Positions 3,112-64,000 of a stretch of 64,000 bases of DNA are shown here, piece after piece; within the stretch, counting starts at the first letter, position 1, and each line of letters begins with the position of its first letter. Position numbers and translations under genes: made by a program. The notes under the pieces were generated by a model. The model made no database searches. It saw only the letters and a list, made by a program, of their open reading frames with translations, and was not told where the DNA came from. The stretch comes from a virus (lineage: Duplodnaviria > Caudoviricetes), in the IMG/VR virus record IMGVR_UViG_3300021399_000126, positions 33,887-97,886 of that record; one strand, written 5' to 3'.

Positions 3112-3146
3112 AAAAAGATTAGAGGAACCTTAATAGATTCCTCTAA
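3112..3146 (-). terminator. Cassette hairpin terminator
   Basis: TTAGAGGAATC-TATTAA-GGTTCCTCTAA followed by TCTTTTT. Confidence 0.75.
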
Positions 3147-3181
3147 TGTCGTTACCAATATTCAATTTTCATCGGGGAGTT

Positions 3182-3388
3182 TTATGACTCCTCAGTATTA
3201 TCAGCATCAGAATCGGAGTCATCCAACTCATCAGCATCACAGATCTCGAAGTCATCTTCGGTCATGGTCTTCTTACGACCACCGAAGATTCCCCAGAGAA
3301 TCCCGGCGATGCCTGCAGCTGTGATTCCAGCTCCGATACCAACTTTTGCCTTGTTACTAAGTTTCTTCATAATTTGTTCTCCTTTCAT
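3182..3388 (-). CDS. Small single-pass membrane protein with acidic tail (start likely 3370)
   Basis: Gly/Ala-rich TM segment followed by a D/E-rich tail; flanked by its own promoter and terminator. Confidence 0.7.
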   Translation of the reverse strand: MKGEQIMKKLSNKAKVGIGAGITAAGIAGILWGIFGGRKKTMTEDDFEICDADELDDSDSDADNTEES

Positions 3389-3414
3389 GTTGAAACTTTC
3401 ATTGGTTATTACAT

Positions 3415-3440
3415 CATTATATAAGTAATATTTTTTGCGA
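3415..3440 (-). promoter_or_regulatory. Cassette promoter motif TCGCA-N14-TATAAT
   Basis: Minus strand TCGCAAAAAATATTACTTATATAATG; one of 13 copies. Confidence 0.7.
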
Positions 3441-3475
3441 TTTATTCGTTTGTTAATCCAAGAACTACATCATCT

Positions 3476-3898
3476 TTATTCATGCACCTCCGGCTTATCC
3501 TCTTCATACTTCTGAATACCGCAGATATTAGCATAATTTATGGCCGCTACTTCTTCACGATAGTTACCATTATTAACATAGAAAACAATTTCATCAGTAT
3601 AGCTGTTATGCTCATATCCATGTGCTGTTATTATGATGCTTTCATCTTCACTAAACTCCGGAATAATAACTTCAAACATGTTTAGTCTTTTTTCCTTAGT
3701 TGCTTCTTCTACGTCAGGATATACCATAAAATTAGCATTATTCACGATACCAACCAGATTCTTTTTACACCAAATACTGTGTACTTTTTTATAATCAAGA
3801 TAAGTATAAAGCGTATTAGTTACATCAGACATTTTAAAAAACTTTATGTTTCTAAGAACTCTTGTTTTCTTGTTATTGAATATTATTGTTGCATTCAT
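3476..3898 (-). CDS. Hypothetical protein
   Basis: ORF with AGGAG SD before MNATII. Confidence 0.65.
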   Translation of the reverse strand: MNATIIFNNKKTRVLRNIKFFKMSDVTNTLYTYLDYKKVHSIWCKKNLVGIVNNANFMVYPDVEEATKEKRLNMFEVIIPEFSEDESIIITAHGYEHNSYTDEIVFYVNNGNYREEVAAINYANICGIQKYEEDKPEVHE

Positions 3899-4241
3899 CT
3901 TTTTTCTCCTCTTTTTTATAAATATAATGATCGCAATCGAATCCATTTATAGTAAGCCAATCAAATAGAACCTCATCTTGCATGGATGATTCACAGACCA
4001 ATATTGGATCTTTACCATGTGCTAAATATAATAATCTATTTAATGTATAAATAACATCAAGATTATTCAATTTATCGGCATATCCAATTCTATCGTCTTT
4101 TTTAACAGGTGCTAAATCTGGATACTCAATACCTCCGCCATTAACATACCAAGGTGGTGCTTTTCGAGCTACAGATATAGGAATACCAATATTTTCATCT
4201 GGCTTTTTTGTAATATCTATAAATCTACTTAGATATATCAT
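3873..4241 (-). CDS. DUF488-like protein
   Basis: MIYLSRF...PISVARKAPPWY...YPDLAP...ILVCE resembles the DUF488 family. Confidence 0.55.
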   Translation of the reverse strand: MIYLSRFIDITKKPDENIGIPISVARKAPPWYVNGGGIEYPDLAPVKKDDRIGYADKLNNLDVIYTLNRLLYLAHGKDPILVCESSMQDEVLFDWLTINGFDCDHYIYKKEEKKDECNNNIQ

Positions 4242-4365
4242 ATTTTTTCTCCATTTTATTAATTGCATCAAGAACTTTGTCACGTCCGTACAAGTCTATA
4301 AGTTCTACTAATGAAAAATAAAGCCACTTCATATAGTCCATTTCGTCATAAAATTGTTTTGACAA
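4225..4365 (-). CDS. 46-aa hypothetical protein (TTG start)
   Basis: Manual: GGAGG SD, MSKQFYDEMDYMKWLYFSLVELIDLYGRDKVLDAINKMEKKYDISK; fills the gap in the operon. Confidence 0.55.
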   Translation of the reverse strand: MSKQFYDEMDYMKWLYFSLVELIDLYGRDKVLDAINKMEKKYDISK

Positions 4366-4369
4366 TTAT

Positions 4370-4591
4370 TTAATCCTCCGTTATAATCTGCTTAATATTG
4401 ACAAAATGCAATTTACCATTTTCGTCTTTAGCTACAACACTATTTGTCTGATGCTCGTCAATGAAATCGATAGTACATTTACCATAATTAGTAGTAAATA
4501 TAATATCACCTTCTTTAAACTGAGCTAATTTTTGTTCATCATTTTTAATTTTTTGCAGCTTCCTTCTCATCTTATCTCCTAACAATTTCAA
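4370..4591 (-). CDS. Hypothetical protein (small beta-barrel-like)
   Basis: FKEGDIIF...GKCTIDFI; operon packing. Confidence 0.55.
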   Translation of the reverse strand: MKLLGDKMRRKLQKIKNDEQKLAQFKEGDIIFTTNYGKCTIDFIDEHQTNSVVAKDENGKLHFVNIKQIITED

Positions 4592-4814
4592 ATCCCAAAA
4601 CCATTTGTCTTGAAATTACTACATCTCGACTTAAAGTATAGAATTCATAAGTCATATCTCCTGGGAAGAATATATTGTCATATACATCTTTTAAAGTCAT
4701 AGTAGTACCATTAGCCAAATGGATTATAACATCATAAAACTCCCTATCTAAAGTCTCATTAACAATTTTTGTAGGAGCATTAAATATTTCATTTAGAATC
4801 CGATGCTTTCCCAT
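4572..4814 (-). CDS. Hypothetical protein
   Basis: ORF track, AGGAG SD. Confidence 0.6.
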   Translation of the reverse strand: MGKHRILNEIFNAPTKIVNETLDREFYDVIIHLANGTTMTLKDVYDNIFFPGDMTYEFYTLSRDVVISRQMVLGFEIVRR

Positions 4815-5001
4815 CTTTTCTCCTTTTCAAAACTCTAACAAAATCACTCCATAGAGCATCACAGAATTTCTTAAGGTTTGCTGTCTCCTCATCTTTTTCA
4901 AATTTTCCCATACTCCAACAAGCGTAAGCAACACCTGCTCTAAAACCTTGTTCAAGTATATCCTGTTCATTTTTGCTTTTATTTACATGATTATTTGCCA
5001 T
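4789..5001 (-). CDS. Hypothetical protein
   Basis: ORF track, GAGG SD. Confidence 0.6.
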   Translation of the reverse strand: MANNHVNKSKNEQDILEQGFRAGVAYACWSMGKFEKDEETANLKKFCDALWSDFVRVLKRRKDGKASDSK

Positions 5002-5005
5002 ATTT

Positions 5006-5170
5006 TTACCTCTTTAAATTTCTATACATTGCTGTGTCTTTAATAAGATCCCATCTCTCGTCTTTTGTTAATGAGAACCAAATATTTAAAAGTGTGTAGA
5101 ATTCGCTTACAGATATTTGACGTTTTCTCAAATAAGCTACAAACTCATCTCTATTCATTGTATTTTTCAT
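5006..5170 (-). CDS. 54-aa hypothetical protein
   Basis: Manual: GGAGG SD, MKNTMNRDEFVAYLRKRQ... Confidence 0.55.
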   Translation of the reverse strand: MKNTMNRDEFVAYLRKRQISVSEFYTLLNIWFSLTKDERWDLIKDTAMYRNLKR

Positions 5171-5189
5171 TTTTATGGTCCCTCCGGGA

Positions 5190-5465
5190 CTAAGATTTGC
5201 AATATTTTATTTGTACATAGGCTTTTACTGGCTCGACACATATTCCTTTAAATTCATGACTAGGATATATTTCATTATCAGTTAAATTGACATAAACAAT
5301 ATCTGAACCTACAAAGACCATTGATAATGCCATTTTTGTTTTTAAATAAATATGATTATTATATCTAAAGCACTCACCTATATTTAAGTCATCAGTATAA
5401 ATCAATCTTTTACTAATTAAATCATCTTTAATTTCCATTAAAATTTCCTCCTTATATCTTCCCAT
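5190..5465 (-). CDS. Hypothetical protein
   Basis: ORF track. Confidence 0.6.
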   Translation of the reverse strand: MGRYKEEILMEIKDDLISKRLIYTDDLNIGECFRYNNHIYLKTKMALSMVFVGSDIVYVNLTDNEIYPSHEFKGICVEPVKAYVQIKYCKS

Positions 5466-5917
5466 TCCTTATATATTCGGATGTTACGGTCAATGTACTC
5501 TTGGGCATCTGTCATTGCTTGCTCAGTTGCCATATCTTGAGAGAGTATCCCTTTTGGATCTGGTATAAACACTTGCATCCATTTATTTAACTCACGAATA
5601 CGTCTACCAAGCCAAGATTTTGGTATAGGTGCATACACATACTTGGTCAAATATAATGGGTATTCCTTTAGCCAACGCCTATCATATGGATCAAGAACTT
5701 CTGTTGTGTCAAACACTATTTCATGACACATTATCGTGTCTTCGTCCTTTTGAATTTTATTGGCTATTGCTGTAAGCTTTGTCATATATTCATTAGCAGC
5801 TAGGATGTAATTCTGTTGATCTTCTTTTGAAAGAACGTCAAAATTTAAATTGACAAATAGATCCAATCCAGGTAACTTTTCTGTTTTTTCGTACATCTCT
5901 CTTACCTCATTGTCCAT
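5438..5917 (-). CDS. Hypothetical protein
   Basis: ORF track, GGAG SD. Confidence 0.65.
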   Translation of the reverse strand: MDNEVREMYEKTEKLPGLDLFVNLNFDVLSKEDQQNYILAANEYMTKLTAIANKIQKDEDTIMCHEIVFDTTEVLDPYDRRWLKEYPLYLTKYVYAPIPKSWLGRRIRELNKWMQVFIPDPKGILSQDMATEQAMTDAQEYIDRNIRIYKEWEDIRRKF

Positions 5918-6311
5918 TTTTTGACATCTCCTCTATTAATAAACGTACGTACAACGGTTTTAATCTAGTAGCAAATTCCTGAATTGCTACTCCATACTCT
6001 GCCATATAATCTATACCTAAAATATTTACAGCATCCTCTGCATTTGCTTCAAAAAAGTGATGAATAGCCTCCATCATATCAGGAATAGCTAACATATCTT
6101 TAGCGAAATCAGATTCTTTGAAATCTTTTGCCATAACCATATTATTTAGTAAATTTAATTTCTTAGCTGCTTCTTGATCTGTGAATGCTTTACGCTTTAA
6201 ATTTAAAATATCATTGGCTGCTTTATTTATTTTTGAATTTTCATTTGACTTATCTTTTACATCATTCATTAACTCATCTAAAATCTCATCTACGATATTA
6301 TCATCGTCCAT
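5907..6311 (-). CDS. Hypothetical protein
   Basis: GGAGG SD before MDDDNIV; the longer ORF-track start overlaps the upstream gene. Confidence 0.65.
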   Translation of the reverse strand: MDDDNIVDEILDELMNDVKDKSNENSKINKAANDILNLKRKAFTDQEAAKKLNLLNNMVMAKDFKESDFAKDMLAIPDMMEAIHHFFEANAEDAVNILGIDYMAEYGVAIQEFATRLKPLYVRLLIEEMSKNGQ

Positions 6312-6519
6312 TTTTATTATGCCTCCGTTTTCTATTTCGATCAACTGACTTACGTATCCAATCTCGTTCGTCTTTTGCTTCCTTTCTTTTATTGTATTCT
6401 GTTTCTTTTTTCTTTTTAAATTCCAAATATAATGGACATTGATCGTGATATGATCCACATCCTTTTCTATCACAATTGACACATGGAGCTTTCATATAAA
6501 TATAGTCCTCTTTATACAT
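6301..6519 (-). CDS. Small Cys-rich basic protein
   Basis: PCVNCDRKGCGSYHDQCP motif with a basic C-terminus. Confidence 0.6.
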   Translation of the reverse strand: MYKEDYIYMKAPCVNCDRKGCGSYHDQCPLYLEFKKKKETEYNKRKEAKDERDWIRKSVDRNRKRRHNKNGR

Positions 6520-6976
6520 AAAATAAAGCTAGATCATTTATAGCTTTCATTTCTTCCTCAGTTATTCCACCACAATCATATTTTTCGTCAAGATTGTAAA
6601 GGCATTGCCAAAAATATCTATCATTATGCCAATTCCAAAATAACAATTCATATGACACATAATCTTTATAATTCTTATTGATTTTTTCGATGAATTCATC
6701 AAATTTCTTTTTGGCAGTGATCGTGGTGCTAAATCCTCTTTTACACATTTCATCTAGCACCAATTCTGAATATGTGTAAAAGTGTGAAATCGGATAATCC
6801 ATAATCTTATTTACAAGAATATGGTTTGGGGTGCCTATCATAGCTATGTTGCGTGCTATAGTACAGCAATCTTGCCATTGAAATATCAATCTTTGAGATG
6901 GCAATGCATGAATTAAATCTTTATGCCAAAGTCTTAATTCACCTCTTTGCGATAATGTATTATCTAATCTTTCCAT
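6512..6976 (-). CDS. Pyrimidine-dimer DNA glycosylase/endonuclease V-like protein (TIGR02328-like)
   Basis: LRLWHKDLIHALPSQRLIFQWQDCC...H..VN...EM.KRG...HNDRY...CL.NL.EK pattern. Confidence 0.7.
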   Translation of the reverse strand: MERLDNTLSQRGELRLWHKDLIHALPSQRLIFQWQDCCTIARNIAMIGTPNHILVNKIMDYPISHFYTYSELVLDEMCKRGFSTTITAKKKFDEFIEKINKNYKDYVSYELLFWNWHNDRYFWQCLYNLDEKYDCGGITEEEMKAINDLALFYV

Positions 6977-6990
6977 TATTATTTCTCCAT

Positions 6991-7032
6991 AAAAACTAAA
7001 GAGTAGACCTATATTTCAAGATCTACTCTTTA
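6991..7032 (-). terminator. Cassette hairpin terminator
   Basis: TAAAGAGTAGATC-loop-GGTCTACTCTTTA followed by GTTTTT. Confidence 0.75.
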
Positions 7033-7038
7033 TTTGAA

Positions 7039-7254
7039 TCATGCATTCCTTGTAAAAGGATGGGCAAACATTTCTGACCATGCATCAGTAACAGCTGTGA
7101 TCCAAGGTATACGTCTTCTCGTCCATATATTATGGATGAAATCAACCATCATCAGTACTCCTGTGATGGCAAATATCATTGTCCATATTATTATGTACAT
7201 AAATGATATAATACCTGATCCAACAGTTATTGCTACATTTTTTAAAGTTTTCAT
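7039..7254 (-). CDS. Small membrane protein (cassette gene)
   Basis: Long hydrophobic stretch; AGGAGG SD; flanked by promoter and terminator. Confidence 0.7.
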   Translation of the reverse strand: MKTLKNVAITVGSGIISFMYIIIWTMIFAITGVLMMVDFIHNIWTRRRIPWITAVTDAWSEMFAHPFTRNA

Positions 7255-7289
7255 GTTCTTATCCTCCTTTGAATACAGTTAACATGTTT

Positions 7290-7315
7290 CATTATAGAAG
7301 GATTAAAATGTGCGA
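7290..7315 (-). promoter_or_regulatory. Cassette promoter motif
   Basis: TCGCACATTTTAATCCTTCTATAATG. Confidence 0.7.
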
Positions 7316-7322
7316 AATATAA

Positions 7323-7592
7323 TTAAGATGGATTATTCGACCCATAATCAGATGGACTATGCTTCTTTTCTTCATCCGTATAACTCTTAGACAATGTTGT
7401 TTGAACTAATTTAAGAGATGTTGTCGGATTGAAGAACACAAGCCCAGCAAATAGCAAGCACCAAGGTGTTTTAAAGTATATGACAGTAAGATATGCGAAA
7501 CATAATACTGCCAAACACCAAATAAGTCTGAATAAACCGGTGAAAATATAATATTTAACCATACACCAGTTGTCGAATGATGCGTTATTCAT
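7323..7592 (-). CDS. Small membrane protein
   Basis: Two hydrophobic segments. Confidence 0.6.
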   Translation of the reverse strand: MNNASFDNWCMVKYYIFTGLFRLIWCLAVLCFAYLTVIYFKTPWCLLFAGLVFFNPTTSLKLVQTTLSKSYTDEEKKHSPSDYGSNNPS

Positions 7593-8364
7593 ATATTGCC
7601 TCCTTCTTCTTTCTACCTGGAGTTTTCTTAACCTTTACACTATTTAGCATAGCCTTATCTTGCTTTTCTTCAGCGATATTGTTATGCTTTTTATACTTTG
7701 TCAGAAATTCATTGCTAAGATTTCTGCAATCCATCAACTTCCAGTCCAATCTGTTTGTGACCGGCACAACATAACTCTTATACTTTTTAACTAACTCAAA
7801 TACCTCAGTATAAGTATCACAGAGTGTTGAAATATCTGTGTCATCAACTTCAAAATTCTCAATCTTCTTCTGAAGCTCATATCTTCCAGCAATAAGAGAT
7901 TCAAGAAAAGCATGATAATACGGATAAGAGTTTTTAAACTCCTCTTCTTCATATGCCGTTTCTACGAAGAATCTGGCATTTCCTGTAAAAGCTGATGTAC
8001 CCTGCTGATTAGTCTTGTCAACACATGCAGCATACACATTAAGAACCCAGTCTATAACTGGCTCATCCCACTTTCCAAGCACAGCTAGTCCAGAATTTAC
8101 ATATATTAGATCTCTTACGAAATCTTCTGAAGGAGAAATGATTGAACACATGTAACTCTGACAAATATAATTAGGCTGATGTAAACATGGGTCATTGTTC
8201 ATCATAACACGTAACATACGCTCGTCGTTTGACAACGTTGGATCAAGCGACAGATCAGCCCACTGTGATACACTTTCTTTCTTGCTGATAATCTCTTTCG
8301 ATTTTGCAGCATATGTTTTTGCATCAATTCTCCAGCTCTTATTATTCTCAACTTTTTTAGCCAT
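7585..8364 (-). CDS. Hypothetical protein
   Basis: 259-aa ORF with GGAGG SD. Confidence 0.7.
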   Translation of the reverse strand: MAKKVENNKSWRIDAKTYAAKSKEIISKKESVSQWADLSLDPTLSNDERMLRVMMNNDPCLHQPNYICQSYMCSIISPSEDFVRDLIYVNSGLAVLGKWDEPVIDWVLNVYAACVDKTNQQGTSAFTGNARFFVETAYEEEEFKNSYPYYHAFLESLIAGRYELQKKIENFEVDDTDISTLCDTYTEVFELVKKYKSYVVPVTNRLDWKLMDCRNLSNEFLTKYKKHNNIAEEKQDKAMLNSVKVKKTPGRKKKEAIYE

Positions 8365-8365
8365 A

Positions 8366-9220
8366 TTAAGCCTCCTTCATCTTTGCATAAAGCGCAACAA
8401 TAGATTCACTAATGTGACCTACTCCTTTTATTTTAGTTATAGCATTTAACCCGTTTTTCTGTAAAAAGAAATATAACTGGTTAATGTTATTTATACAATT
8501 CCTTACAAAACTGTTCACATACCTTGTTGCATAAGAATCATTTAATTTTGCTTCAGGGCATAGAAAATTTCTTAACATATTTATAGAACTAATACCAACC
8601 CCATTCGGATCTTTATCAGATGGTACATCATTTGCAGTATTATAGATATCAGCAAATTTCTTCCGGTCAGAATCCTGTAAATCTTTTGGAAATTTAGAAT
8701 ATAATTTATTCCTTAATTCAGATTTAACAGACTGAGGATATAGTAATGTTTGATACATGTCAGGATCGTCAAATAGTGTTACAAAATCTGACATGGTTAT
8801 AATACCCTTATCATTAAGCATCTTAATAATCATTTTCTGAGAAGAAAGAGACCACCTCTTATTTATCTCAAATTTAAGATTCATATGAGATGCTCGTCTT
8901 TCGAGAAGTTTTATGATATAATCATCACTACTTTTCTCAGCTTCTTTTTCACAGAACTCTTCAAAAGTAGGTTTCTTTTCGTCCGTACAACTCTTAGAAG
9001 AATTTTCTGAACGATTTAAAACCTTGCCAGTGGTTACAGGACCAGAATCTTCAGAATCAACCTCATTAAAAGGATATTCTTTTTCCTCTGCATGATCAGA
9101 GAGATACTGTTCACACTTACCTCTTATAAGACCCAATTTAAAAGCATTCACAGTTGGGTCTCTGTCCAGCTTTGATATTTCCATTAAATCATTAACGAGC
9201 ACTAAGTCTCCTTTAGTCAT
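8366..9220 (-). CDS. Protein with RNA polymerase alpha-CTD-like helix-hairpin-helix domain(s)
   Basis: C-terminal TRYVNSFVRNCINNINQL...ITKIKGVGHISE resembles the alpha-CTD consensus. Confidence 0.5.
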   Translation of the reverse strand: MTKGDLVLVNDLMEISKLDRDPTVNAFKLGLIRGKCEQYLSDHAEEKEYPFNEVDSEDSGPVTTGKVLNRSENSSKSCTDEKKPTFEEFCEKEAEKSSDDYIIKLLERRASHMNLKFEINKRWSLSSQKMIIKMLNDKGIITMSDFVTLFDDPDMYQTLLYPQSVKSELRNKLYSKFPKDLQDSDRKKFADIYNTANDVPSDKDPNGVGISSINMLRNFLCPEAKLNDSYATRYVNSFVRNCINNINQLYFFLQKNGLNAITKIKGVGHISESIVALYAKMKEA

Positions 9221-9231
9221 ATTTGACCTCC

Positions 9232-9486
9232 CTATAATAAATTATTTGCAGCGCAATACTCCTCAATTGTGTACTGATGGTATTGTTCAATTTTTTCAAC
9301 ATTTTTAACTTTAACAAAAAGGCCATCTTTTAAAATATAATATGGACTTTTTATAGTTTTATTGTATATAGCCGCTACCTGTTTATACGGCATCAGTCGA
9401 CATTTCGTCTGCCATCCCGGATTCTGACTCAGCGACATTATCGCTGCCCTCATGCTGTGCATTGGTGTCTTTTTCTTCATTTTCAA
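9232..9486 (-). CDS. Hypothetical protein
   Basis: ORF track, GGAGG SD. Confidence 0.6.
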   Translation of the reverse strand: MKMKKKTPMHSMRAAIMSLSQNPGWQTKCRLMPYKQVAAIYNKTIKSPYYILKDGLFVKVKNVEKIEQYHQYTIEEYCAANNLL

Positions 9487-9808
9487 CCTCCGAAAGATCC
9501 CAAGTTACACCGAAATTGAGAATATTTTCATCAATATCATGTGCTGGGATGTACTTTTGGATCACTACTACTTCTCTAACTGCCAACGACTTTGTCACTA
9601 TCTTGGCACTATTATTTGCCATAGCTGTAAGCAAGGCCATGTAGTTCTCTTTTGCAAAGATCAATGCTTCAGTTAAACTAGGAAATACTATTGCATCCTT
9701 AGAATCATAAGAAAATCTATAGCCTGTTGAGTCACTTGACTCTGAAACATAATAGAAATTCTTCTTTCCCTTAAATACACCGTTTACGCTAATTACAAAT
9801 TTTGACAT
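9383..9808 (-). CDS. Hypothetical protein
   Basis: ORF track, AGGAG SD. Confidence 0.6.
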   Translation of the reverse strand: MSKFVISVNGVFKGKKNFYYVSESSDSTGYRFSYDSKDAIVFPSLTEALIFAKENYMALLTAMANNSAKIVTKSLAVREVVVIQKYIPAHDIDENILNFGVTWDLSEVENEEKDTNAQHEGSDNVAESESGMADEMSTDAV

Positions 9809-9825
9809 AGTTTTTTCTCCTTTTA

Positions 9826-10032
9826 TTAAATAATATCTTCGTCAGTGATTTCGATGGGCAAACTAATATTTTTAGCTCCTTTCTGGCCCAAATATAATTT
9901 CACTGTATCTTTATCTGGTTCTGCCCTAAGAACAATATCTTTAGAAACTCCCAATGCTTCTGAGAATTTTTCGGATATTATCTTTGTGTTTAGATGATGC
10001 GCTGCATCACAAGTAAATTTCAATACTAACAT
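9826..10032 (-). CDS. Hypothetical protein
   Basis: GGAGG SD before MLVLKF; the upstream extension runs through a terminator. Confidence 0.6.
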   Translation of the reverse strand: MLVLKFTCDAAHHLNTKIISEKFSEALGVSKDIVLRAEPDKDTVKLYLGQKGAKNISLPIEITDEDII

Positions 10033-10043
10033 ATTTCCTCCAT

Positions 10044-10078
10044 AAAAAGCTAAGAGGAACCTTATTAGATTCCTCTTA
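10044..10078 (-). terminator. Cassette hairpin terminator
   Basis: TAAGAGGAATC-TAATAA-GGTTCCTCTTA followed by GCTTTTT. Confidence 0.75.
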
Positions 10079-10086
10079 ACCAATTT

Positions 10087-10137
10087 GCCATGAATCGCCA
10101 TGTGCTAACGCCGCTGTTTTGCCCACAGCAGTAAGAG
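10087..10137 (-). ncRNA. Two-hairpin RNA motif, copy 2
   Basis: CUGCUGU-GGGCAAA-ACAGCGG, with a compensatory change relative to the copy at 2661-2689. Confidence 0.5.
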
Positions 10138-10141
10138 CATT

Positions 10142-10303
10142 TTAATATTCTTCAGGAATTTTCAGATATTTTTTAACCGCAATTGTCGGAAGATGTAGCT
10201 TCGTTGCGATTTCATACCATTCTAAATGTTCCTCGTAACGAAGTATATCAATCTCCTCTTTTTCTTTTTCGGTTAATACATAAATCTTAATTTTATTTCC
10301 CAT
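10142..10303 (-). CDS. 53-aa helix-turn-helix protein (sigma region 4-like)
   Basis: Manual: MGNKIKIYVLTEKEKEEIDILRYEEHLEWYEIATKLHLPTIAVKKYLKIPEEY; AGGAGG SD. Confidence 0.6.
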   Translation of the reverse strand: MGNKIKIYVLTEKEKEEIDILRYEEHLEWYEIATKLHLPTIAVKKYLKIPEEY

Positions 10304-10316
10304 TTTAATCACCTCC

Positions 10317-10342
10317 TATAATAGAAGGCTTAATATTTGCGA
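10317..10342 (-). promoter_or_regulatory. Cassette promoter motif abutting the SD
   Basis: TCGCAAATATTAAGCCTTCTATTATA directly followed by GGAGG. Confidence 0.65.
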
Positions 10343-10591
10343 TTATTCATCTTCTGCATCTTCTTTACCAGAATTGATATGGAAGATATATGACTTACCA
10401 TCTTCACTCATTGTAGCATTTTTAGTTAGACTGTTGCATATCGATCCAGCAGTGCGTCCTGTTATAGCCACATCTATTAATTTCAATCCGGCTATAATAA
10501 TAGCACCAATACCAACACCAGTTAATAAACCGTGAACCATGGGTGACTTTCTGTAAAGATCCATTGATACATCATAAGCACTTTTCTTCAT
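10343..10591 (-). CDS. Small membrane protein
   Basis: GLLTGVGIGAIIIAGL TM segment. Confidence 0.6.
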   Translation of the reverse strand: MKKSAYDVSMDLYRKSPMVHGLLTGVGIGAIIIAGLKLIDVAITGRTAGSICNSLTKNATMSEDGKSYIFHINSGKEDAEDE

Positions 10592-10612
10592 ATTTTATCT
10601 CCTTTTTTATGT

Positions 10613-10888
10613 TTAGAATGAAGTATTTGCGGGAAAATTAGCAATCTTAGGATCTATTTTTAAAGCATCACAAATATAACCCTTTAAATCTATAATACTA
10701 GCATATTTAAATTCTTTTCTTTTATATAAAAAATTGTCATCATATACATCACGAATTAAATATATTATTTGGTTGTCGTCACACAATTCAATTTTTGTTA
10801 TAACACCCAATCTATCTTTTACACATGTGTTAACAGCTCCATATGGATGATCGACAGTTATAATCACAATATCACCTACAGAATACAT
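10613..10888 (-). CDS. KOW/SH3-barrel-like phage protein
   Basis: YSVGDIVII...GVITKI. Confidence 0.55.
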   Translation of the reverse strand: MYSVGDIVIITVDHPYGAVNTCVKDRLGVITKIELCDDNQIIYLIRDVYDDNFLYKRKEFKYASIIDLKGYICDALKIDPKIANFPANTSF

Positions 10889-10900
10889 ATTTATTTCCTC

Positions 10901-11704
10901 CTATGTAAATAATGGACAAGATATAATATTTCCCTTACTATCTCTTTTAGAACCTTTAGGATCGTTCCTAAAATCACTTTTCATTAGATAACATTTATTA
11001 TAACTTGTCTTGCAGGTTGCACATAATGATACAAAAGTTTCTTTTTTCTTAGTTCTTGGCGCAGAATATAATTTTGTTACAGATTCACTCCTTTCTTTTT
11101 TAATAATTTCTAGATGCTTTTGCCACTTTTTCTCACATTCTTCTGAACATCTAGAAATTTCATTAGGAATTTTACCTATTGGATAAATTTTGATTTGTTT
11201 CTTGTTACATACTGGACAAAATTCTATTCTTTGAACTTCTGTAGCTTTTGGTTTTGGCTTGATTTTTGGAATGCTATAAGTTTTATGCATATATACTTGT
11301 CGACATTCAGGTGAACAAAATTGAGTTTGCCATCTGTCCGGATCTACTCCTTTTGCACCATTTATTGGCTTTAAACACTGCCTACAAAGCATATGTTTAG
11401 CTGACCACTTTTTTCTACATTCTACTGAACAAAAGAAATGAATATTATCAGGATCGTCGGATAAACCTTTTCCCATAATTACTAAATCTGGTGGTATCTT
11501 AAATGCTTTATTACAGTTTGAACAAATGTAATCCTGTAACTTTGGTTGATAATAAATTCTTTTATTTCTATTTATTTCTTTAGCCATTTTGACCTTTAAT
11601 CGATCAGAATTTGGTGAACATTCTGGACAATATTTCCTATTTGATCGATTTGCATCAAATGATTTACCGCATATCTCACATTCTTTTATCATAACGAACG
11701 ACAC
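10901..11704 (-). CDS. Multi-zinc-finger protein (TRASH/MYM-like repeats)
   Basis: Repeated CxxC...(F/Y)CSxEC units. Confidence 0.7.
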   Translation of the reverse strand: MSFVMIKECEICGKSFDANRSNRKYCPECSPNSDRLKVKMAKEINRNKRIYYQPKLQDYICSNCNKAFKIPPDLVIMGKGLSDDPDNIHFFCSVECRKKWSAKHMLCRQCLKPINGAKGVDPDRWQTQFCSPECRQVYMHKTYSIPKIKPKPKATEVQRIEFCPVCNKKQIKIYPIGKIPNEISRCSEECEKKWQKHLEIIKKERSESVTKLYSAPRTKKKETFVSLCATCKTSYNKCYLMKSDFRNDPKGSKRDSKGNIISCPLFT

Positions 11705-12015
11705 CTCTTACAATGCTTCTTTATTCTCTCTAAATTTGCATTTATATGATTTAAAAGAGATTGTGTTTCTGGTGAATATAATTTGTCCAATTCTTCCTGT
11801 ATTTCTTCCACCTGATCATTTATATATCTGAAATTATAATCCAGAAATATAGCTTTTTCAGATTCATTTCTTAATTCTCTATCACCTTTAACGATTAATG
11901 CCAATTTGTCAAGTGGTACATTCATTGCCCAATCCATAGCTTGATCAAAAGAACAACCCGTCTTTTTTTCATAAATGTCAGCTGCTTCAATAGCCAGTTC
12001 TTTTATTTTTCCCAT
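11689..12015 (-). CDS. Hypothetical protein
   Basis: AAGGTG SD before MGKIKELA. Confidence 0.6.
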   Translation of the reverse strand: MGKIKELAIEAADIYEKKTGCSFDQAMDWAMNVPLDKLALIVKGDRELRNESEKAIFLDYNFRYINDQVEEIQEELDKLYSPETQSLLNHINANLERIKKHCKRCRSL

Positions 12016-12472
12016 TTTTACACCTTTCTTCATGATTATTTTCCCATCCGACGATATCTGTTTCATCAGTTTCCATAAGTAAATTATACTTTTTCCATAT
12101 ATCATATAATTTTGGCATCTGAATAGCTATCCAATCTACTAGTGGCTCATTTGAAGACCATGATGTTGGATCTAGATGAGATTGATTGCCTAATCCACAT
12201 TCATATATAAAAGCATGTGTTACCTCATGTCTCAAAGTATGTTTATAACGTTCATACCTTGTGTCAGGATATCTAGAGGCATATTTAAATTCATTTTGAT
12301 CAGTAAGATCAGCTATAATAATATTTTTAATATAAAAATCAGTATAACCGTTGCATGGGTGATCTGATAAAATGAAATCATCGGAAACCTTTTTTATTTT
12401 TACAGTATAATCAATTCCTAAAATGTTTATTTTTTTAGGAACTTCGAATTCTTTTTCTTTAATTTTTCCCAT
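11987..12472 (-). CDS. HExxH zinc metallopeptidase-like protein (ImmA/IrrE-like)
   Basis: TLRHEVTHAFIYECG...NEPLVDW. Confidence 0.7.
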   Translation of the reverse strand: MGKIKEKEFEVPKKINILGIDYTVKIKKVSDDFILSDHPCNGYTDFYIKNIIIADLTDQNEFKYASRYPDTRYERYKHTLRHEVTHAFIYECGLGNQSHLDPTSWSSNEPLVDWIAIQMPKLYDIWKKYNLLMETDETDIVGWENNHEERCKNGKNKRTGY

Positions 12473-12508
12473 ATTTTCTCACCATTTTGACCTTTCATTT
12501 TTAAATTT

Positions 12509-12630
12509 AAAAGACTTAGAGGAACCATATTCGATTCCTCTACGCCTAACAACTACAAGAAAGGAGGATGCGGAATGATAAAATATACCATTTTTGATAT
12601 ACTTTACCACTCTCATCCATCTTTCCACAT
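12509..12630 (-). ncRNA. Long G.U-rich hairpin sRNA with its own promoter and terminator
   Basis: Promoter 12631-12656, imperfect stem of about 26 bp at about 12559-12624, terminator 12516-12543; no SD-led ORF on the minus strand. Confidence 0.7.
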
Positions 12631-12714
12631 CATAATAGGAGGAATATTTTTTGCGAAAGATAAAGAAAAATATGAAGGAAGCCATAAGACTTCCTTGTTT
12701 TTAATGAAAGTTAT

Positions 12715-12813
12715 TTAACTCTCACGTTTTGACTCGATATACTCGAGTGCCTTTTCACGGCTCTCGAATATAATACCATCAACAACGTATACTTCTCTCT
12801 CATTATTTTCCAT
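12715..12813 (-). CDS. 32-aa cassette peptide
   Basis: Manual: MENNEREVYVVDGIIFESREKALEYIESKRES; GGAGG SD. Confidence 0.65.
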   Translation of the reverse strand: MENNEREVYVVDGIIFESREKALEYIESKRES

Positions 12814-12966
12814 TTTTTTATCCTCCATTTTCCTTCATATTACTGATAAGACACTATTATCTTATCATTATAGGGGTAATAAATTTTGCGAAAGATAAAA
12901 GACTTAGAGAGACCATAATTGATCTCTCTATTGTCTGTTACCCATAACCAATTCCTAACAAAGGAA

Positions 12967-13326
12967 TTAAGGCTTTCTGCACTGATTTGAAGGCGAGAAC
13001 TTTGATCGTCCCATTTCGATCTGAATCTCGTCGTCAGGATTCTGAGATCTGCGATATTGCACATTGTAATTTATCACTGGAACTATAACACCCCCGACAG
13101 CTGCCAATCCAGCTAAAACTGCTGCCCAGATCTTAGCTCTACTTTCAACTTTCGAGCTTTCAATCTTAGCAATAGCTTCATACTTTTGTGCCATCTGGAT
13201 GCGAAGTTCCTTCTTTCGTTCTGGTGTGCAGTTTTCGCGCCACATTTCCTCTTCGTCCATTGCGACAAGATCCAATAAATCATCGGACATTGTTTTCTTC
13301 TTCTTAAACCAATCTTTTATTGCCAT
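12967..13326 (-). CDS. Coiled-coil plus TM cassette protein
   Basis: AAAGGAG SD; IWAAVLAGLAAVGGVIVPV TM segment. Confidence 0.7.
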   Translation of the reverse strand: MAIKDWFKKKKTMSDDLLDLVAMDEEEMWRENCTPERKKELRIQMAQKYEAIAKIESSKVESRAKIWAAVLAGLAAVGGVIVPVINYNVQYRRSQNPDDEIQIEMGRSKFSPSNQCRKP

Positions 13327-13440
13327 TTTATTCTCCTTTCTAAAACGGTTAATAAGTTACCTATTATATAAGCCATAATTTTAGCGAAAAGCCTAAAGAG
13401 GCCATAATGACCCCTTTTAGGTTTTATTGGGTTTCTTTTA

Positions 13441-13818
13441 TCACCACTCCCAAATTAAGGTGAACAGATCACAATATTTAACTACCAAATTTTGTAACGC
13501 ACAATATATAACTGATGGTTCACAATCTTCATTAGTATTTTCTGCTATATCGGCTGCTAAATCCTCCATAAAAGCTACTAAAGTATCGTCAGTTTCATTT
13601 GCAACTCTTTTTGCTAAATCATAGCATGTATCTCCATCCCTATAAAAACGATTCAATTCTTTCTCTCTACGTTTTTTAGTAATGCAGAGTAATACTATTT
13701 GTGCAGGAAGAGTTATAAGATTCACTGCAATAACTAGTGGCCAGTACAAAATACCTGCCAATATAGTTAATACTACATTTCTAAGAATCATTCCAACATT
13801 GTACATAAAGTTTTTCAT
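13441..13818 (-). CDS. Membrane cassette protein
   Basis: AGGAGG SD before MKNFMY; hydrophobic N-terminus. Confidence 0.7.
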   Translation of the reverse strand: MKNFMYNVGMILRNVVLTILAGILYWPLVIAVNLITLPAQIVLLCITKKRREKELNRFYRDGDTCYDLAKRVANETDDTLVAFMEDLAADIAENTNEDCEPSVIYCALQNLVVKYCDLFTLIWEW

Positions 13819-13930
13819 GTTACATTTCCTCCTTAATGTTAAACACAGCACTATTACTGTATTATAGAAGGAATAAATTGTGCGAAAAGATTAGAGAGAC
13901 CATAATTGATCTCTCTACATTCTAAATTTT

Positions 13931-14032
13931 TTAAATCGAAGATAATAGCCACATGCCTACTATAAATGCGACTATCGTTAGTAATCCTACTATATCTCGG
14001 ATCACCTTCAATATTTGTCTAATTGTAAACAT
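13931..14032 (-). CDS. 33-aa hydrophobic cassette peptide
   Basis: Manual: MFTIRQILKVIRDIVGLLTIVAFIVGMWLLSSI; AGGAGG SD. Confidence 0.65.
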   Translation of the reverse strand: MFTIRQILKVIRDIVGLLTIVAFIVGMWLLSSI

Positions 14033-14129
14033 ATTCTTTTTACCTCCTTATAATTAATCTATTATAGAAGGAATATAATATGCGAAAAACTCAAAGAGGC
14101 CATAATGACCTCTTCAAGTCTCTCCATAT

Positions 14130-14342
14130 TTAATTGTTCTTATTATTATAATGTAAAGTCATGCATCGAACATTATTCATATTATAAGCCACCCTCTGAT
14201 GATCTAAATCATTCACAAAAATGAAGCCATTATTAATTTCAATTACCCCTTTACCTTCAAGATATTTGAAACTTACATTTCCTTCACCTACGATGTGAAT
14301 TTCACCTTCTCCATCAAAGAAACTAATAAATAATTCTGTCAT
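14130..14342 (-). CDS. 70-aa cassette protein
   Basis: AGGAGG SD; flanked by promoter and terminator. Confidence 0.7.
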   Translation of the reverse strand: MTELFISFFDGEGEIHIVGEGNVSFKYLEGKGVIEINNGFIFVNDLDHQRVAYNMNNVRCMTLHYNNKNN

Positions 14343-14445
14343 AGTACAGTCCTCCTTTATAATATAAGCGACACTATTGTCTATTATAGAAGGAATAATT
14401 TTTGCGTGAAAAAATTATAGAAGGGATGAAAACATTAGTTAATAG

Positions 14446-14595
14446 TTACTTTTGTAAACTAACTTGTTTTCTTGCTACATCAAGAGCTACTCGTTCAGCT
14501 CTCTTATTACCTTTAGTTCCTCGTCTAACGAGAATCTGCTGTGCTAAGATTTGAGCCTGACGCTCAAGATTTTCATCTTCAAGTCTTTTACTCAT
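14446..14595 (-). CDS. 49-aa basic cassette protein
   Basis: GAGG SD before MSKRLEDENL. Confidence 0.6.
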   Translation of the reverse strand: MSKRLEDENLERQAQILAQQILVRRGTKGNKRAERVALDVARKQVSLQK

Positions 14596-14725
14596 AATTA
14601 CCTCACTTTCTATCCCTTCTATCATTATACAAACAATAAATCTTGCGTCCGTACAAGTTTTTATCCATTTTGAAAAAATTAAAGAAACCATAAAAAGAAG
14701 AGGAGCAATATGCTCCCCGACTTTA

Positions 14726-15046
14726 TTAGTCCTTGTAGTATAATATGTTATACGCTAATATATCGCCTGTATTGTTTGTAACTATTTGAAATTCAAATTC
14801 ATTACAATCATATACAAGACCATACATTTCTGTACCATCCTCATACTCAACTCCTATAAAGTCGATATTCTGCTCTTCTTCTTTATCGAGATACATTTCA
14901 TAATTGAGTATCTCGGTATAATCCATTTCTTCATATTTAGTAACATATGCATCATCAACATTGTATACTTCAGTATCTTCTACCAAAGTCATCCCAACGA
15001 ATGACATAAACATCTTTATTACCATTGTTAAAATAAATTTTACCAT
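14726..15046 (-). CDS. Acidic exported or membrane-anchored cassette protein
   Basis: Hydrophobic N-terminus followed by a D/E/Y-rich domain. Confidence 0.7.
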   Translation of the reverse strand: MVKFILTMVIKMFMSFVGMTLVEDTEVYNVDDAYVTKYEEMDYTEILNYEMYLDKEEEQNIDFIGVEYEDGTEMYGLVYDCNEFEFQIVTNNTGDILAYNILYYKD

Positions 15047-15167
15047 AATTTTATCCTCTTTTCTATAAAATGTCGACAGCCAATTCTGTCTATTAAAGAG
15101 GTAATAAATTTTGCGTATTTTGAAAAAATTAAAGAAGCCTTATTTTCTAAAGCTTCTTAATTTTTTA

Positions 15168-15290
15168 TTATACAATACCGAAATTAAGAACTCGGTATCC
15201 TTTTGCTTTACACCAATCAAGACCTTCCTGAACAGTTTCGAATACTGCCCAACGGATCTCGTTGTCTACTAAAAAGAATACTCTTCTCAT
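15168..15290 (-). CDS. 40-aa cassette peptide
   Basis: Manual: MRRVFFLVDNEIRWAVFETVQEGLDWCKAKGYRVLNFGIV; AGGAGG SD. Confidence 0.65.
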   Translation of the reverse strand: MRRVFFLVDNEIRWAVFETVQEGLDWCKAKGYRVLNFGIV

Positions 15291-15377
15291 AACTTCGTAC
15301 CTCCTTTCTATAAAAGAGGTATTAAATTTTGCGAAAAATTAAAGAGGCCATATTTTTAAAAAAGAGAAAGAGGCCTT

Positions 15378-15500
15378 TTAAGCCTCGTCCTCTAATTCTT
15401 CAATTAAAAAGCATTCAATTCTAAATGCACAAGAGTCACAATCATCACATGGGTGACCTTCTGCTTCACATATCTTGTACATTTCTATTAATTCATCCAT
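15378..15500 (-). CDS. 40-aa acidic Cys-rich cassette peptide
   Basis: Manual: MDELIEMYKICEAEGHPCDDCDSCAFRIECFLIEELEDEA; AGGAGG SD. Confidence 0.65.
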   Translation of the reverse strand: MDELIEMYKICEAEGHPCDDCDSCAFRIECFLIEELEDEA

Positions 15501-15540
15501 TTTTTATCACCTCCTTATTACAGAAGGAATATAATCTGCG

Positions 15541-15770
15541 ACTAAGGATTCGGACCCTAGTTCTTCATACCAAGCAGAAAGGTAGACCTTGGTAGACGTT
15601 TTATACCGGATATAAACTATCGCAAACCTTATAAGTCACCCCTCACACGGAGGTTTTATTTTATCAGGAGAACTCGGCAAGGTTTTAGAGGTATCTTATA
15701 AGGGGTTGTGTGAGGGGTATGAAACATGTATAAATTCGTAGCCATTTTGAATTGTTTACGAAATTAGATA
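15541..15770 (-). ncRNA. Structured non-coding region at the late/accessory boundary
   Basis: T-loop hairpin 15541-15561; 11-bp inverted repeat 15638-15648/15708-15718; two CTTATAAG palindromes; hairpin enclosing TCAAAATGG at about 15733-15765. Confidence 0.45.
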
Positions 15771-56393: not shown

Positions 56394-57005
56394 TTATAAT
56401 TTTATTTCTCCTTTTTTCAAACGATCATTAAGATCTGCTGTGTCTAAAGTTTCGGATAACATTCTTCCTGGTATACCTAAAATTATTTGCATCCCATTAC
56501 CGGATTTTAAATAATATTTTCCAAGATCTGTGAGTTCTTTACTCATTCTAGTTTTATTCATCTCTTTTACTATATTATCTACATCTTTTTGAATGGCTGC
56601 AATATTTTTTAAAATATCTTCTTGACTTGAATATTTATCTTTTAATTTATTTAATTTCTTATATGCTACTTGTACACTTTTATCCATATCTTTATATGCT
56701 CGATATTTATTAGAAATTACAGATCCTGATCCCCAACCAACTTTTCCTTTTTCTTTATATATATCTTTAATTATATTATAAGCATTATTAGACTTATTTA
56801 CACTTGTTAAAAATGGATTCTTAGCATTGTATCTTTTATTAACTTTTCCAACAATTTTATTAGCTTTCTTTTCAGCAGCACTATAATCTTTAGATGGAGA
56901 AAGAGGATACGGAGGACCATTTTCTACGCCCCATTTTTGGCCTTTTATGCCGTGGTGCATGAGGTAATCTGAATCCTCTGAAATTTGATATTTAAACTCA
57001 CTCAT
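56394..57005 (-). CDS. HHGIKGQKWGV-tag (DUF7211-like) protein
   Basis: YLMHHGIKGQKWGVENGPPYPL N-terminus. Confidence 0.75.
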   Translation of the reverse strand: MSEFKYQISEDSDYLMHHGIKGQKWGVENGPPYPLSPSKDYSAAEKKANKIVGKVNKRYNAKNPFLTSVNKSNNAYNIIKDIYKEKGKVGWGSGSVISNKYRAYKDMDKSVQVAYKKLNKLKDKYSSQEDILKNIAAIQKDVDNIVKEMNKTRMSKELTDLGKYYLKSGNGMQIILGIPGRMLSETLDTADLNDRLKKGEIKL

Positions 57006-63933: not shown

Positions 63934-64000
63934 AACTTAACCTCCGGAAATATAATACCAAAACATTTCAAAAAATAATTCCCCCGGAGACTTTTCGAAG

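Follow-up and report, generated by a model that had tools for sequence, protein, structure and literature searches.

Which enzyme reads the repeated TCGCA-N14-TATAAT-like elements that precede small genes in a tailed phage? The question is raised by a 64,000-nucleotide stretch (hereafter the window) of the IMG/VR record IMGVR_UViG_3300021399_000126, which comprises bases 33887-97886 of a 97,886-bp phage record rated 100% complete. Coordinates of the promoters P1-P13 and of the cassettes refer to the window, and those marked "genome" to the whole record. In scans of open reading frames (ORFs) and annotations the minus strand carries every gene, and it is called the coding strand throughout. The 27 copies of the element distinguished in the record are very probably promoters. 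That they are read by a phage-encoded RNA polymerase of the family PHROG 4291, which would initiate directly after the TATAAT-like hexamer, is the explanation that we favour and consider fairly probable.

A continuous 27-bp element on the coding strand

An exact search of the window for WCGCW-N14-TATAAT returned nine matches, all on the minus strand, against 0.30 expected from shuffled sequences (maximum 2); one of the nine, at 2947-2971, scores below 14 bits in the later matrix. This position-weight matrix (PWM), refined on the whole 97,886-bp record and compared with 20 shuffled genomes, distinguished 27 sites of 27.1-40.8 bits, all on the coding strand. The next best site reached 6.6 bits, the best on the other strand 10.5 bits and the best in the 20 shuffled genomes 13.5 bits. 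Thirteen of the 27 sites lie within the window. The 13 minus-strand copies reported in the initial annotation, each placed by the low end of the motif, are all present, and the matrix scan reproduced their arrangement, with ten copies head to tail in 12.5-15.5 kb and three inserted singly into operons. Two of the single sites, 10342 and 3440 (like the third, 7315, named by the T of TCGCA, which is position 1 in the motif numbering used here), come immediately after a stop codon. The matrix scan found no copy in the 48-kb structural half of the genome.

The motif is a continuous block of about 27 bp rather than a pair of hexamers. Its consensus reads (T/A)CGCA, N5-6, TTA, N3, C, N2, C, T-n-TAAT and two purines, and the gap between the (T/A)CGCA box and the hexamer is fixed at 14 bp in 27/27 sites. 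Positions 2-4 (C, G and C) and position 11 (T) are likewise invariant; A at position 5, A at position 12 and C at position 16 each occur in 26/27 sites, and C at position 19 in 23/27. Within the hexamer, T occupies positions 20, 22 and 25 (bases 1, 3 and 6) in all 27 sites, and A is found at position 23 (base 4) in 24 and at position 24 (base 5) in 26 of them. The least conserved hexamer base is the second (position 21: A in 19 of 27, T in six, G in two), and the exact TATAAT is present at 16 sites. The bases just before the hexamer are T/C and C, never TGn, and a TG extension is thus lacking. Positions 26 and 27, which follow the hexamer, are purines in 27/27 and 26/27 sites, respectively.

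In the -10 element of sigma-70 promoters, constraint is strongest on the second base (A-11) and the last (T-7) and loose on the third, and transcription starts about 7 nt downstream. The hexamer profile of the 27 sites reverses these constraints, its second base being the loosest and its third invariant. At seven sites a Shine-Dalgarno sequence (SD) begins 0-4 nt past the hexamer: at 10342 it abuts TATTAT, and at 15541 two bases separate it from TGTAAT. Were RNA to start about 7 nt downstream, the genes at these seven sites would lose their SD. Hairpins of 5 bp or more start within 0-1 nt of the hexamer's end at 7/27 sites, compared with 10.6% of random positions when these were scored with looser starts of 0-3 nt. 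Several of these hairpins take the form GACA-ATAG-TGTC, and in the one cassette with an orthologue in the IMG/VR relative G002 the stem is kept, with differences in the loop and in stem length. A hairpin at the extreme 5′ end of a transcript would be sensible only if the RNA starts at the first base after the hexamer, and the purines found there are as expected of initiating nucleotides. We infer that the RNA would start at the purine directly after the TATAAT-like block, which would place the CGCA box at about -24 to -21. The combination of hexamer profile and predicted SD geometry is incompatible with a sigma-70 -10 element. In L224, a metagenome fragment about 90% identical to this phage, the orthologous P11 promoter has TTTAAT where this phage has TATTAT.

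The absence of TTGACA at the usual spacing, pointed out in the initial annotation, was borne out. Canonical TTGACA-N16-18-TATAAT sites occur at chance level in the region (83 against 71.5 +/- 8.5), and those with at least 11 of 12 matches number 5 and 4 on the two strands genome-wide, against 4.1 expected. A consensus scan of both strands placed no canonical sigma-A promoter where the array or the polymerase operon begins. Three perfect host-type promoters were observed: two 12/12 copies of TTGACA-N17-TATAAT on the plus strand, antisense to all genes (4359-4387 and 35264-35292), and a third, in coding-strand orientation, within the primase-polymerase gene (genome 8589).

These counts bear on an explanation that we regard as distinctly improbable, namely that the sigma-A holoenzyme alone uses the sites as "-10 only" early promoters, with upstream bases tuning their strength and the phage polymerase acting on late genes only, from another signal, in the manner of YonO. 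Early genes do need to be expressed before any phage protein exists, the structural half carries no motif copy, and YonO transcribes late genes as one long operon (PMC5467207). However, with no -35 element, no TG extension and a variable equivalent of A-11, the sites would make very poor sigma-A promoters. Unaided host recognition also leaves unexplained why the CGC, TTA and C positions, at their fixed spacing, do not vary across host phyla, and the polymerase operon itself lies behind the motif. No further conserved motif came to light ahead of the structural genes, where de novo motif discovery was not applied.

It is hardly credible that the repeats are not promoters at all but sites of binding or recombination, recognised for instance by a site-specific recombinase or by a protein of packaging or replication. 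Cassette content does vary at the junctions, as described below, but all copies lie on the coding strand ahead of an SD and start codon or of a structured RNA, and the motif has no inverted or dyad symmetry; the accompanying Pfam and PHROG scans took in only part of the phage proteins and included no recombinase-specific search. In eleven of the 27 copies the T-run of a terminator hairpin leads without a gap into the TCGCA box, and others come immediately after a stop codon.

A predicted two-barrel RNA polymerase as candidate reader

The candidate reader is a predicted single-chain, two-barrel polymerase of 957 aa, a putative relative of YonO and QDE-1, encoded at genome 735-3608, outside the window. 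Over its full length the protein corresponds to PHROG 4291 (E = 0); it matches the Pfam family RdRP (PF05183) and carries helix-turn-helix (HTH) domains at both ends. Its GADFDGD loop is invariant in 14 homologues, down to 46% identity. An AlphaFold model (predicted local distance difference test score, pLDDT, 68) gave QDE-1 as the top fold match in the PDB, with a probability of 0.99 and low template modelling (TM) scores, followed by weaker matches to the largest subunits of Pol II, Pol IV and archaeal polymerases. A phmmer search against PDB chain sequences yielded no meaningful match. Used as a single query in IMG/VR, the protein retrieved nothing, and an alignment query was needed to find its relatives; the closest polymerases, 77-84% identical to it, are encoded on 92-103-kb ENA contigs (P0002, P0004 and P0008).

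Members of PHROG 4291 are usually annotated as "HTH DNA-binding protein". The family matches 250 GenBank phage records, among them cultured phages of Arthrobacter, Gordonia, Streptomyces, Rhodococcus and Lactococcus, as well as thousands of metagenomic proteins. Koert et al. (bioRxiv 10.1101/842583) described the protein as a putative polymerase and its gene as the signature of a supercluster of siphoviruses from Actinobacteria and Firmicutes; the PHROG 4291 group is marked by the HTHs at both ends. The polymerase gene is the last large gene in the genomes of that study and in this one.

The sole sigma-like signal consists of sub-threshold, region-4-like HTH matches at the C-terminus of the polymerase. 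Sigma-70 region 2 (PF04542) had no match at E <= 1 in the record, although control genomes do score, and neither MotA (PF09114, MotA_activ) nor AsiA (PF09010) was matched at E <= 1 in six frames of the whole record. The initial annotation had proposed a regulon dependent on a phage activator or a phage sigma factor. A phage-specific promoter class without a -35 element is retained from that proposal; sigma, MotA and AsiA homologues are lacking, and the phage polymerase is the better candidate for its reader.

Among relatives, the motif is seen to travel with the polymerase gene. The IMG/VR relatives G001 and G002, whose polymerases are 67-72% identical, have TCGCA-aaatttattcttac-TATAAT or TATAGT on the coding strand, and the same architecture is carried by many contigs with a 43%-identical polymerase. 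Cultured and IMG relatives with the motif share the polymerase at 40-72% identity, and some of them infect another phylum. In Arthrobacter phage Mudcat the element reads TCGCG-taaATTACA-N5-TATAAT, with eight coding-strand matches (seven of the TATAAT form) and two on the other strand. Gordonia phage Chikenjars has eight coding-strand copies of TCGCA-N3-ATTACA-N5-TATAAT-GAGACCCCTA, and Streptomyces phage Scap1 (61% G+C) has seven copies of TCGCA-N14-TATAGT-GAGACCCCTAC; shuffles of these three genomes gave a mean of 0.3-0.9 matches and a maximum of 3-4. In Lactococcus phage P118, which encodes the most diverged polymerase (35% identical), TTTACA-N5-TATAAT-GA is kept and TTTTA replaces TCGCA. About ten copies of ATTTTAwG-TTTTACA-TACCC-TATAAT-GAAAGG were found in this genome (locus L116), e.g. 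at 23028, 23650, 24018, 25398, 26186, 28176, 39618 and 45103. When the DNA upstream of the polymerase operon was aligned for five phages, the motif and the purine-rich stretch after it formed an invariant block, and the rest had diverged.

A 17-base version of the signal matched more than 100 IMG/VR stretches, many of them repeatedly. The polymerase gene was present in 30/30 tested IMG/VR records (at least 42 kb, chosen among the signal carriers), including 19/19 of those at least 90% complete. Across 596 Gb of bacterial and archaeal genomes, the 17-base pattern gave mostly scattered single matches in unrelated taxa, as chance predicts; one bin with double matches was full of phage contigs, each ending in the polymerase gene.

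Several points weigh against the polymerase as the reader. The co-occurrence of motif and gene is confounded by common descent, and all enzyme assignments for the family and the motif are comparative. The likeness of TATAAT to the sigma-70 -10 element may not be coincidental, and a hairpin followed by a T-run is the classical termination signal of bacterial polymerases. Two identical copies of TCGCA-aaa-ATTACA-gcccc-TATAAT-AG occur in an 88-kb contig of a Mogibacterium metagenome-assembled genome (MAG; locus L252:2406-2919), separated by about 490 bp and surrounded by ordinary genes of the chromosome (MoeA, MobB, nitroreductase, Nramp), with one copy upstream of a DUF6591 gene, and no polymerase homologue was found in this MAG; the double match may reflect chance and local duplication. 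The sole recognisable promoter before the polymerase operon is itself of the same type (genome 4559, kept in relatives), so some enzyme must read it earlier: the polymerase would have to be delivered together with the DNA, or the host polymerase would need some activity at the sites. For a packaging route into the virion, a BLAST comparison of the polymerase N-terminus with one of the tagged head-region proteins described next gave no alignment.

Three proteins encoded between terminase and portal (window 53194-54096, 56394-57005 and 57727-58593, minus strand) share an N-terminal tag, Y-L-(S/M)-H-H-G-I-K-G-Q-K-W-G-V-E-N-G-P-P-Y-P. The N-terminus of the polymerase (genome 3570-3608), L-Q-H-Y-G-M-P-R-R-S-G-R-Y-P-W-G-S-G, resembles this tag by eye, and its L-x-H-Y-G...W-G-S-G segment is invariant in the polymerase family. 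A shared head-loading tag is only a lead. A virion polymerase fused to the tape measure protein, as in phage P23-45, was considered and rejected: the 3465-aa tape measure protein is without DxDxD, so this solution is inapplicable here.

A different division of labour would have host RNA polymerase with sigma-A read TATAAT as a -10 element, a phage factor at TCGCA replacing the -35 contact. The logic would be MotA/AsiA-like without shared ancestry, and the factor could be the HTHs of the PHROG 4291 protein, which lie at both of its ends, or a small HTH protein such as the 53-aa product of 10142-10303. We regard this as the main alternative, real but unlikely. It would account for the exact TATAAT at 16/27 sites, for the enriched hairpin-plus-T-run terminators and for motif copies in a chromosomal context (Mogibacterium) without a polymerase gene, and weak activity of the host polymerase at the sites would in part ease the bootstrap. 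The related 50-bp motif of Gordonia phage Vardy was, moreover, published as a sigma-70 -10 promoter (PMC9671010). Set against this are a hexamer whose base 2 is not A at 8/27 sites and whose base 3 is invariant, the SD located 0-4 nt after the hexamer at seven sites, the hairpins that start from the first base after it, and the purines at both following bases, with one base of one site as the exception. Homologues of MotA, AsiA or sigma are likewise missing from the record. The spacing of the 27-bp block is also fixed across phages of Actinobacteria and Firmicutes-type hosts, which is easier explained by a single phage enzyme contacting the whole block.

In the mechanism that we propose, the PHROG 4291 polymerase would read the promoters of about 27 bp and start RNA at the purine after the TATAAT-like block. 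Terminator-fused promoters would create self-contained cassettes, each composed of a promoter, a short leader (often with a 5′ hairpin), an SD, either a small ORF or a structured RNA, and lastly a terminator. Copies situated immediately behind stop codons would re-prime transcription within operons. Since the structural half contains no motif copy, transcripts of the late genes would probably originate at genome 4559, the last promoter, which lies ahead of the nuclease-polymerase operon, and read through the joined ends of the genome, or else depend on an unrecognised late signal. The terminator-promoter junctions would let cassettes pass as modules between related phages. A bolder version, in which the polymerase is an injected one-polypeptide holoenzyme, a two-barrel core fused to HTHs that act as sigma on CGCA/TTA and open the TATAAT-like block, the whole programme, late genes included, runs free of host polymerase and the junctions serve as patches of homology that shuffle cassettes across a supercluster in two phyla, is put forward tentatively and seems doubtful to us.

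The cassette array and its exchange among relatives

The features of the array and of the three single promoters are listed below in window coordinates, with PWM scores in brackets.

15517-15541, minus strand: promoter P1, head of the array, TCGCA-N14-TGTAAT (34.3 bits)
15378-15500, minus strand: cassette 1 ORF, 40 aa, no family
15370-15386, minus strand: cassette 1 terminator hairpin
15310-15334, minus strand: promoter P2, hexamer TTTTAT (34.2 bits)
15168-15290, minus strand: cassette 2 ORF, 40 aa
15132-15158, minus strand: cassette 2 terminator hairpin, T-run fused to P3
15092-15116, minus strand: promoter P3, ACGCA box, hexamer TTTAAT (35.3 bits)
14726-15046, minus strand: cassette 3 ORF, 106 aa
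14700-14718, minus strand: cassette 3 terminator hairpin
14624-14648, minus strand: promoter P4, ACGCA box with CTTGTACGG before it (27.1 bits)
14446-14595, minus strand: cassette 4 ORF, 49 aa, without a hairpin after it
about 14413-14424, minus strand: half-promoter CCCTTCTATAAT without a TCGCA box, just upstream of P5
14383-14407, minus strand: promoter P5 (38.3 bits)
14130-14342, minus strand: cassette 5 ORF, 70 aa
14091-14116 (approximate), minus strand: hairpin of the GAAGAGGTC-loop-GGCCTCTT type, T-run fused to P6
14061-14085, minus strand: promoter P6 (37.7 bits)
13931-14032, minus strand: cassette 6 ORF, 33 aa
13892-13917, minus strand: terminator hairpin, T-run fused to P7, identical to the hairpin at 12905-12930
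13861-13885, minus strand: promoter P7, hairpin from the first base after the hexamer (38.3 bits)
13441-13818, minus strand: cassette 7 ORF, 125 aa
13392-13421 (approximate), minus strand: hairpin, T-run fused to P8
13363-13387, minus strand: promoter P8, TCGCT box (28.4 bits)
12967-13326, minus strand: cassette 8 ORF, 119 aa
12905-12930, minus strand: terminator hairpin, T-run fused to P9
12867-12891, minus strand: promoter P9, 9-bp hairpin from the first base after the hexamer (36.7 bits)
12715-12813, minus strand: cassette 9 ORF, 32 aa
12675-12696, minus strand: terminator hairpin, T-run fused to P10
12632-12656, minus strand: promoter P10, hexamer TATTAT (35.2 bits)
12510-12631, minus strand: cassette 10, structured RNA with no ORF, a long hairpin followed by a terminator hairpin at 12517-12542
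10318-10342, minus strand: single in-operon promoter P11, after a TAA stop, hexamer TATTAT, SD adjoining the hexamer
10142-10303, minus strand: 53-aa ORF behind P11, HTH-like by eye, with a weak match to PHROG 2198 (E 0.003, below threshold)
10048-10081, minus strand: terminator hairpin closing the P11 cassette
7291-7315, minus strand: single in-operon promoter P12 (36.9 bits)
7039-7254, minus strand: 71-aa ORF behind P12, followed by a terminator hairpin at 6997-7032
3416-3440, minus strand: single in-operon promoter P13, directly after a TAA stop (31.4 bits)
3182-3370, minus strand: 62-aa ORF behind P13, followed by a terminator hairpin at 3118-3147
after the terminator hairpin 3118-3147: tRNA-Gln

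The order of promoter copy, single small gene and related hairpin given in the initial annotation describes most of the cassettes; it does not extend to cassette 10, which has no ORF, or to cassette 4, which has no hairpin. Nine of the ten stacked cassettes contain one ORF each, of 32-125 aa. None of 12 cassette proteins reached any family's threshold in Pfam or PHROGs, which leaves the host-takeover or anti-defence role proposed in the initial annotation neither supported nor contradicted. Terminator-like hairpins are enriched about threefold (17 against 5.2 +/- 2.4 expected) and form related families, and the 26-nt hairpin that occurs at both 13892-13917 and 12905-12930 flanks unrelated ORFs. 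The half-promoter at 14413-14424 looks like a relic of junction recombination or duplication.

A subfamily of ACGCA-box promoters (P4 at 14624-14648, and genome 19696 and 19441) was observed to share an upstream extension, (A)ACTTGTACGG, which spans window 14649-14662 and genome 19697-19712 and 19442-19457. Its CTTGTACGGACG string recurs in a distant relative (locus L225, near 5880). The extension may be a regulator site or the mark of a promoter subclass.

The RNA of cassette 10 folds with a minimum free energy of -51 kcal/mol (z = -9.2), and 0/200 shuffles fold as well. Its long hairpin, of about 29 bp, holds CAUCCUCCUUUCU in the 3′ arm, paired with an SD-like 5′ arm; CAUCCUCCUUUCU resembles the anti-SD 3′ end of 16S rRNA. 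No Rfam family matches this RNA, and a search of the region with Rfam found two tRNAs and nothing else.

The genome has a G+C content of 33% and strong SD sites (AGGAGG). On the coding strand, the gene order starts with terminase, portal, a capsid-protease fusion, the 3465-aa tape measure protein, tail proteins and lysin, and continues with the cassette array, replication and nucleotide-metabolism genes, a nuclease operon and the 957-aa polymerase-like gene, which is the penultimate gene in the record. The capsid-protease fusion, the tape measure protein and the polymerase place the phage in the Arthrobacter/Gordonia/Streptomyces/Lactococcus siphovirus supercluster. Both termini of the record (window 63983-64000; genome 1-18) carry the same 18 bases, CTTCGAAAAGTCTCCGGG, so the assembly closes on itself and is circular or concatemeric. 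About 470 bp of G+C-rich non-coding DNA (genome 1-405 and window about 63934-64000) lie between the record ends and probably constitute the packaging site; a degenerate TCGCG-N14-TATGTC was observed within this stretch. An adenylosuccinate-synthetase-like protein of 371 aa is encoded at genome 25732-26847 (locus L010:8732-9847, minus strand). The idea that it is a PurZ, and the phage one with a Z-genome, was dropped: the best solved relatives are ordinary PurA, with no PurZ chain among the matches.

Close relatives of the phage were sought in several ways. Megablast of the region against GenBank phages gave no match, and an exact IMG/VR scan for the phage-specific form TCGCA-N9-CCTTCTATAAT returned single matches at chance level only, so close relatives are absent from the IMG/VR collection. 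A 634-aa tail-fibre-like protein, used as a query for relatives of the main array, gave only partial matches in unrelated contigs.

Core genes are syntenic with those of G001 and G002. A 7.4-kb block (genome about 12.8-20.2 kb, outside the window) with nine promoters and about 14 small genes lies between two core genes which in G001 and G002 are less than 300 bp apart, the block being absent there. One cassette from the block, comprising a promoter, a 5′ hairpin, a 75-aa ORF and a terminator, recurs in G002 at 57% identity on the far side of a core gene, and the bounds of the homology are the promoter and the terminator. The fragment L224, which is 3.5 kb long and whose homology ends at window ~12018, short of the main array, has hardly any changes in the promoter at 10342 or the terminator at 10048-10081; between them it encodes a strongly diverged 43-aa version instead of the 53-aa ORF. 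A 91-aa gene at window 10613-10888 is absent from L224, with no promoter or terminator at the breakpoints, so not all gene flux uses junctions. Outside the main array, cassette content and order are thus not identical across relatives, differing in content and position in G001, G002 and L224, which agrees with the expectation of the initial annotation. With unrelated ORFs enclosed by the same terminator-promoter junctions, cassettes behave like modules that can be exchanged. These comparisons support modular shuffling of cassettes and suggest recombination at the terminator-promoter junctions.

Comparison with known systems

Phages whose own polymerases read promoters specific to them are already known. 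With the promoters of T7, T3 and SP6 the element shares a continuous block of ~23-27 bp up to the start (here a predicted one), a TATA-like AT-rich segment just before +1, a purine start, location on one strand and many copies. The T7-type enzymes have a right-hand, Pol I-like fold, in contrast to the two-barrel fold predicted here. The T7 polymerase gene is an early gene, read by the host polymerase from canonical promoters, whereas no canonical host promoters are recognisable here for the polymerase gene.

The initial annotation had taken T4 middle promoters as its model. These promoters likewise lack a -35 element, have a box that corresponds to one ~30 bp upstream here under sigma-70 numbering, and define a phage-specific regulon. 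The MotA box, (a/t)(a/t)(a/t)TGCTTtA, lies near -30, 12 +/- 1 bp upstream of a sigma-70 -10 element. At the level of detail the analogy breaks down: the box is TCGCA rather than TGCTT, the spacing is 14 rather than 12 +/- 1 bp, MotA and AsiA are missing, and the hexamer and SD geometry lacks the features of a sigma-70 -10 element.

The closest published element is the 50-bp motif of Gordonia cluster DJ (phage Vardy, PMC9671010), which we regard as the same element: an intergenic TATAAT repeat on the coding strand, ahead of small genes in mid-genome. In the DJ phage Chikenjars, eight copies have GAGACCCCTA.GAAAGGA after TATAAT, and the box, spacing, hexamer and two purines match those of the phage analysed here. 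The spacer and leader are specific to the lineage, with TTATT-CCTTC here versus TTACA-CGYCC in DJ, the GAGACCCCTA leader is lacking here, and the motif here is often fused to a terminator hairpin. The published note describes a sigma-70 -10 promoter and draws no link to the polymerase gene. We found no paper linking the DJ-type motif with the polymerase, the family having been predicted from sequence only, and the literature on YonO and P23-45, Koert et al., the Arthrobacter and Gordonia announcements and papers on the P087-group yielded no promoter for this polymerase family.

YonO of SPbeta (PMC5467207) is also a single-chain two-barrel polymerase of about 100 kDa with a DxDGD loop, from a phage of a Gram-positive host. 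It serves one late operon, and the sequence of its promoter, P_YonO, is undefined; in this phage there are 27 early or middle units, none of them in the structural half. The Thermus phage P23-45 (virion gp96 and non-virion gp64; PMC10770324) is likewise a long-tailed siphovirus with a two-barrel RNA polymerase. It has conserved motifs upstream of mapped early starts, and among its relatives the presence of the motif tracks the polymerase (PMC10770324). The motif sequences differ, and starts and polymerase occupancy were measured for P23-45, as opposed to sequence alone here. With a defined candidate promoter of 27 bp and a predicted start, the system would be directly testable in cultured relatives. 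If true, it would reveal by what means a minimal relative of cellular RNA polymerase locates promoters in the absence of sigma, and it could offer an orthogonal expression module for Gram-positive hosts.

The cassettes themselves are best compared with the PeSL (promoter-stem-loop) cassettes of T4-like myoviruses (PMC2839356, PMC4122927), in which junctions of a terminator hairpin and a promoter likewise surround small ORFans. In PeSL phages, gene gain, loss and replacement between relatives have breakpoints at the junctions; here this may hold in part, with the ORF swap in L224 as one clean case and the 91-aa indel, which has no junction at its ends, as an indeterminate one. The initial annotation had drawn this parallel with T4 promoter/stem-loop cassettes, and it holds for the way in which the cassettes work; it does not hold for membership, given the lineage, the promoter type and the indel without a junction. 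PeSL cassettes belong to T4-like phages and have sigma-70 early promoters, in contrast to a siphovirus supercluster and a promoter that is predicted not to be of the sigma-70 type. The present phage offers a particularly clear array of terminator-fused cassettes together with direct comparative evidence of cassette exchange, and its architecture would extend the PeSL idea, of regulatory junctions as joints for gene shuffling, to an unrelated phage lineage.

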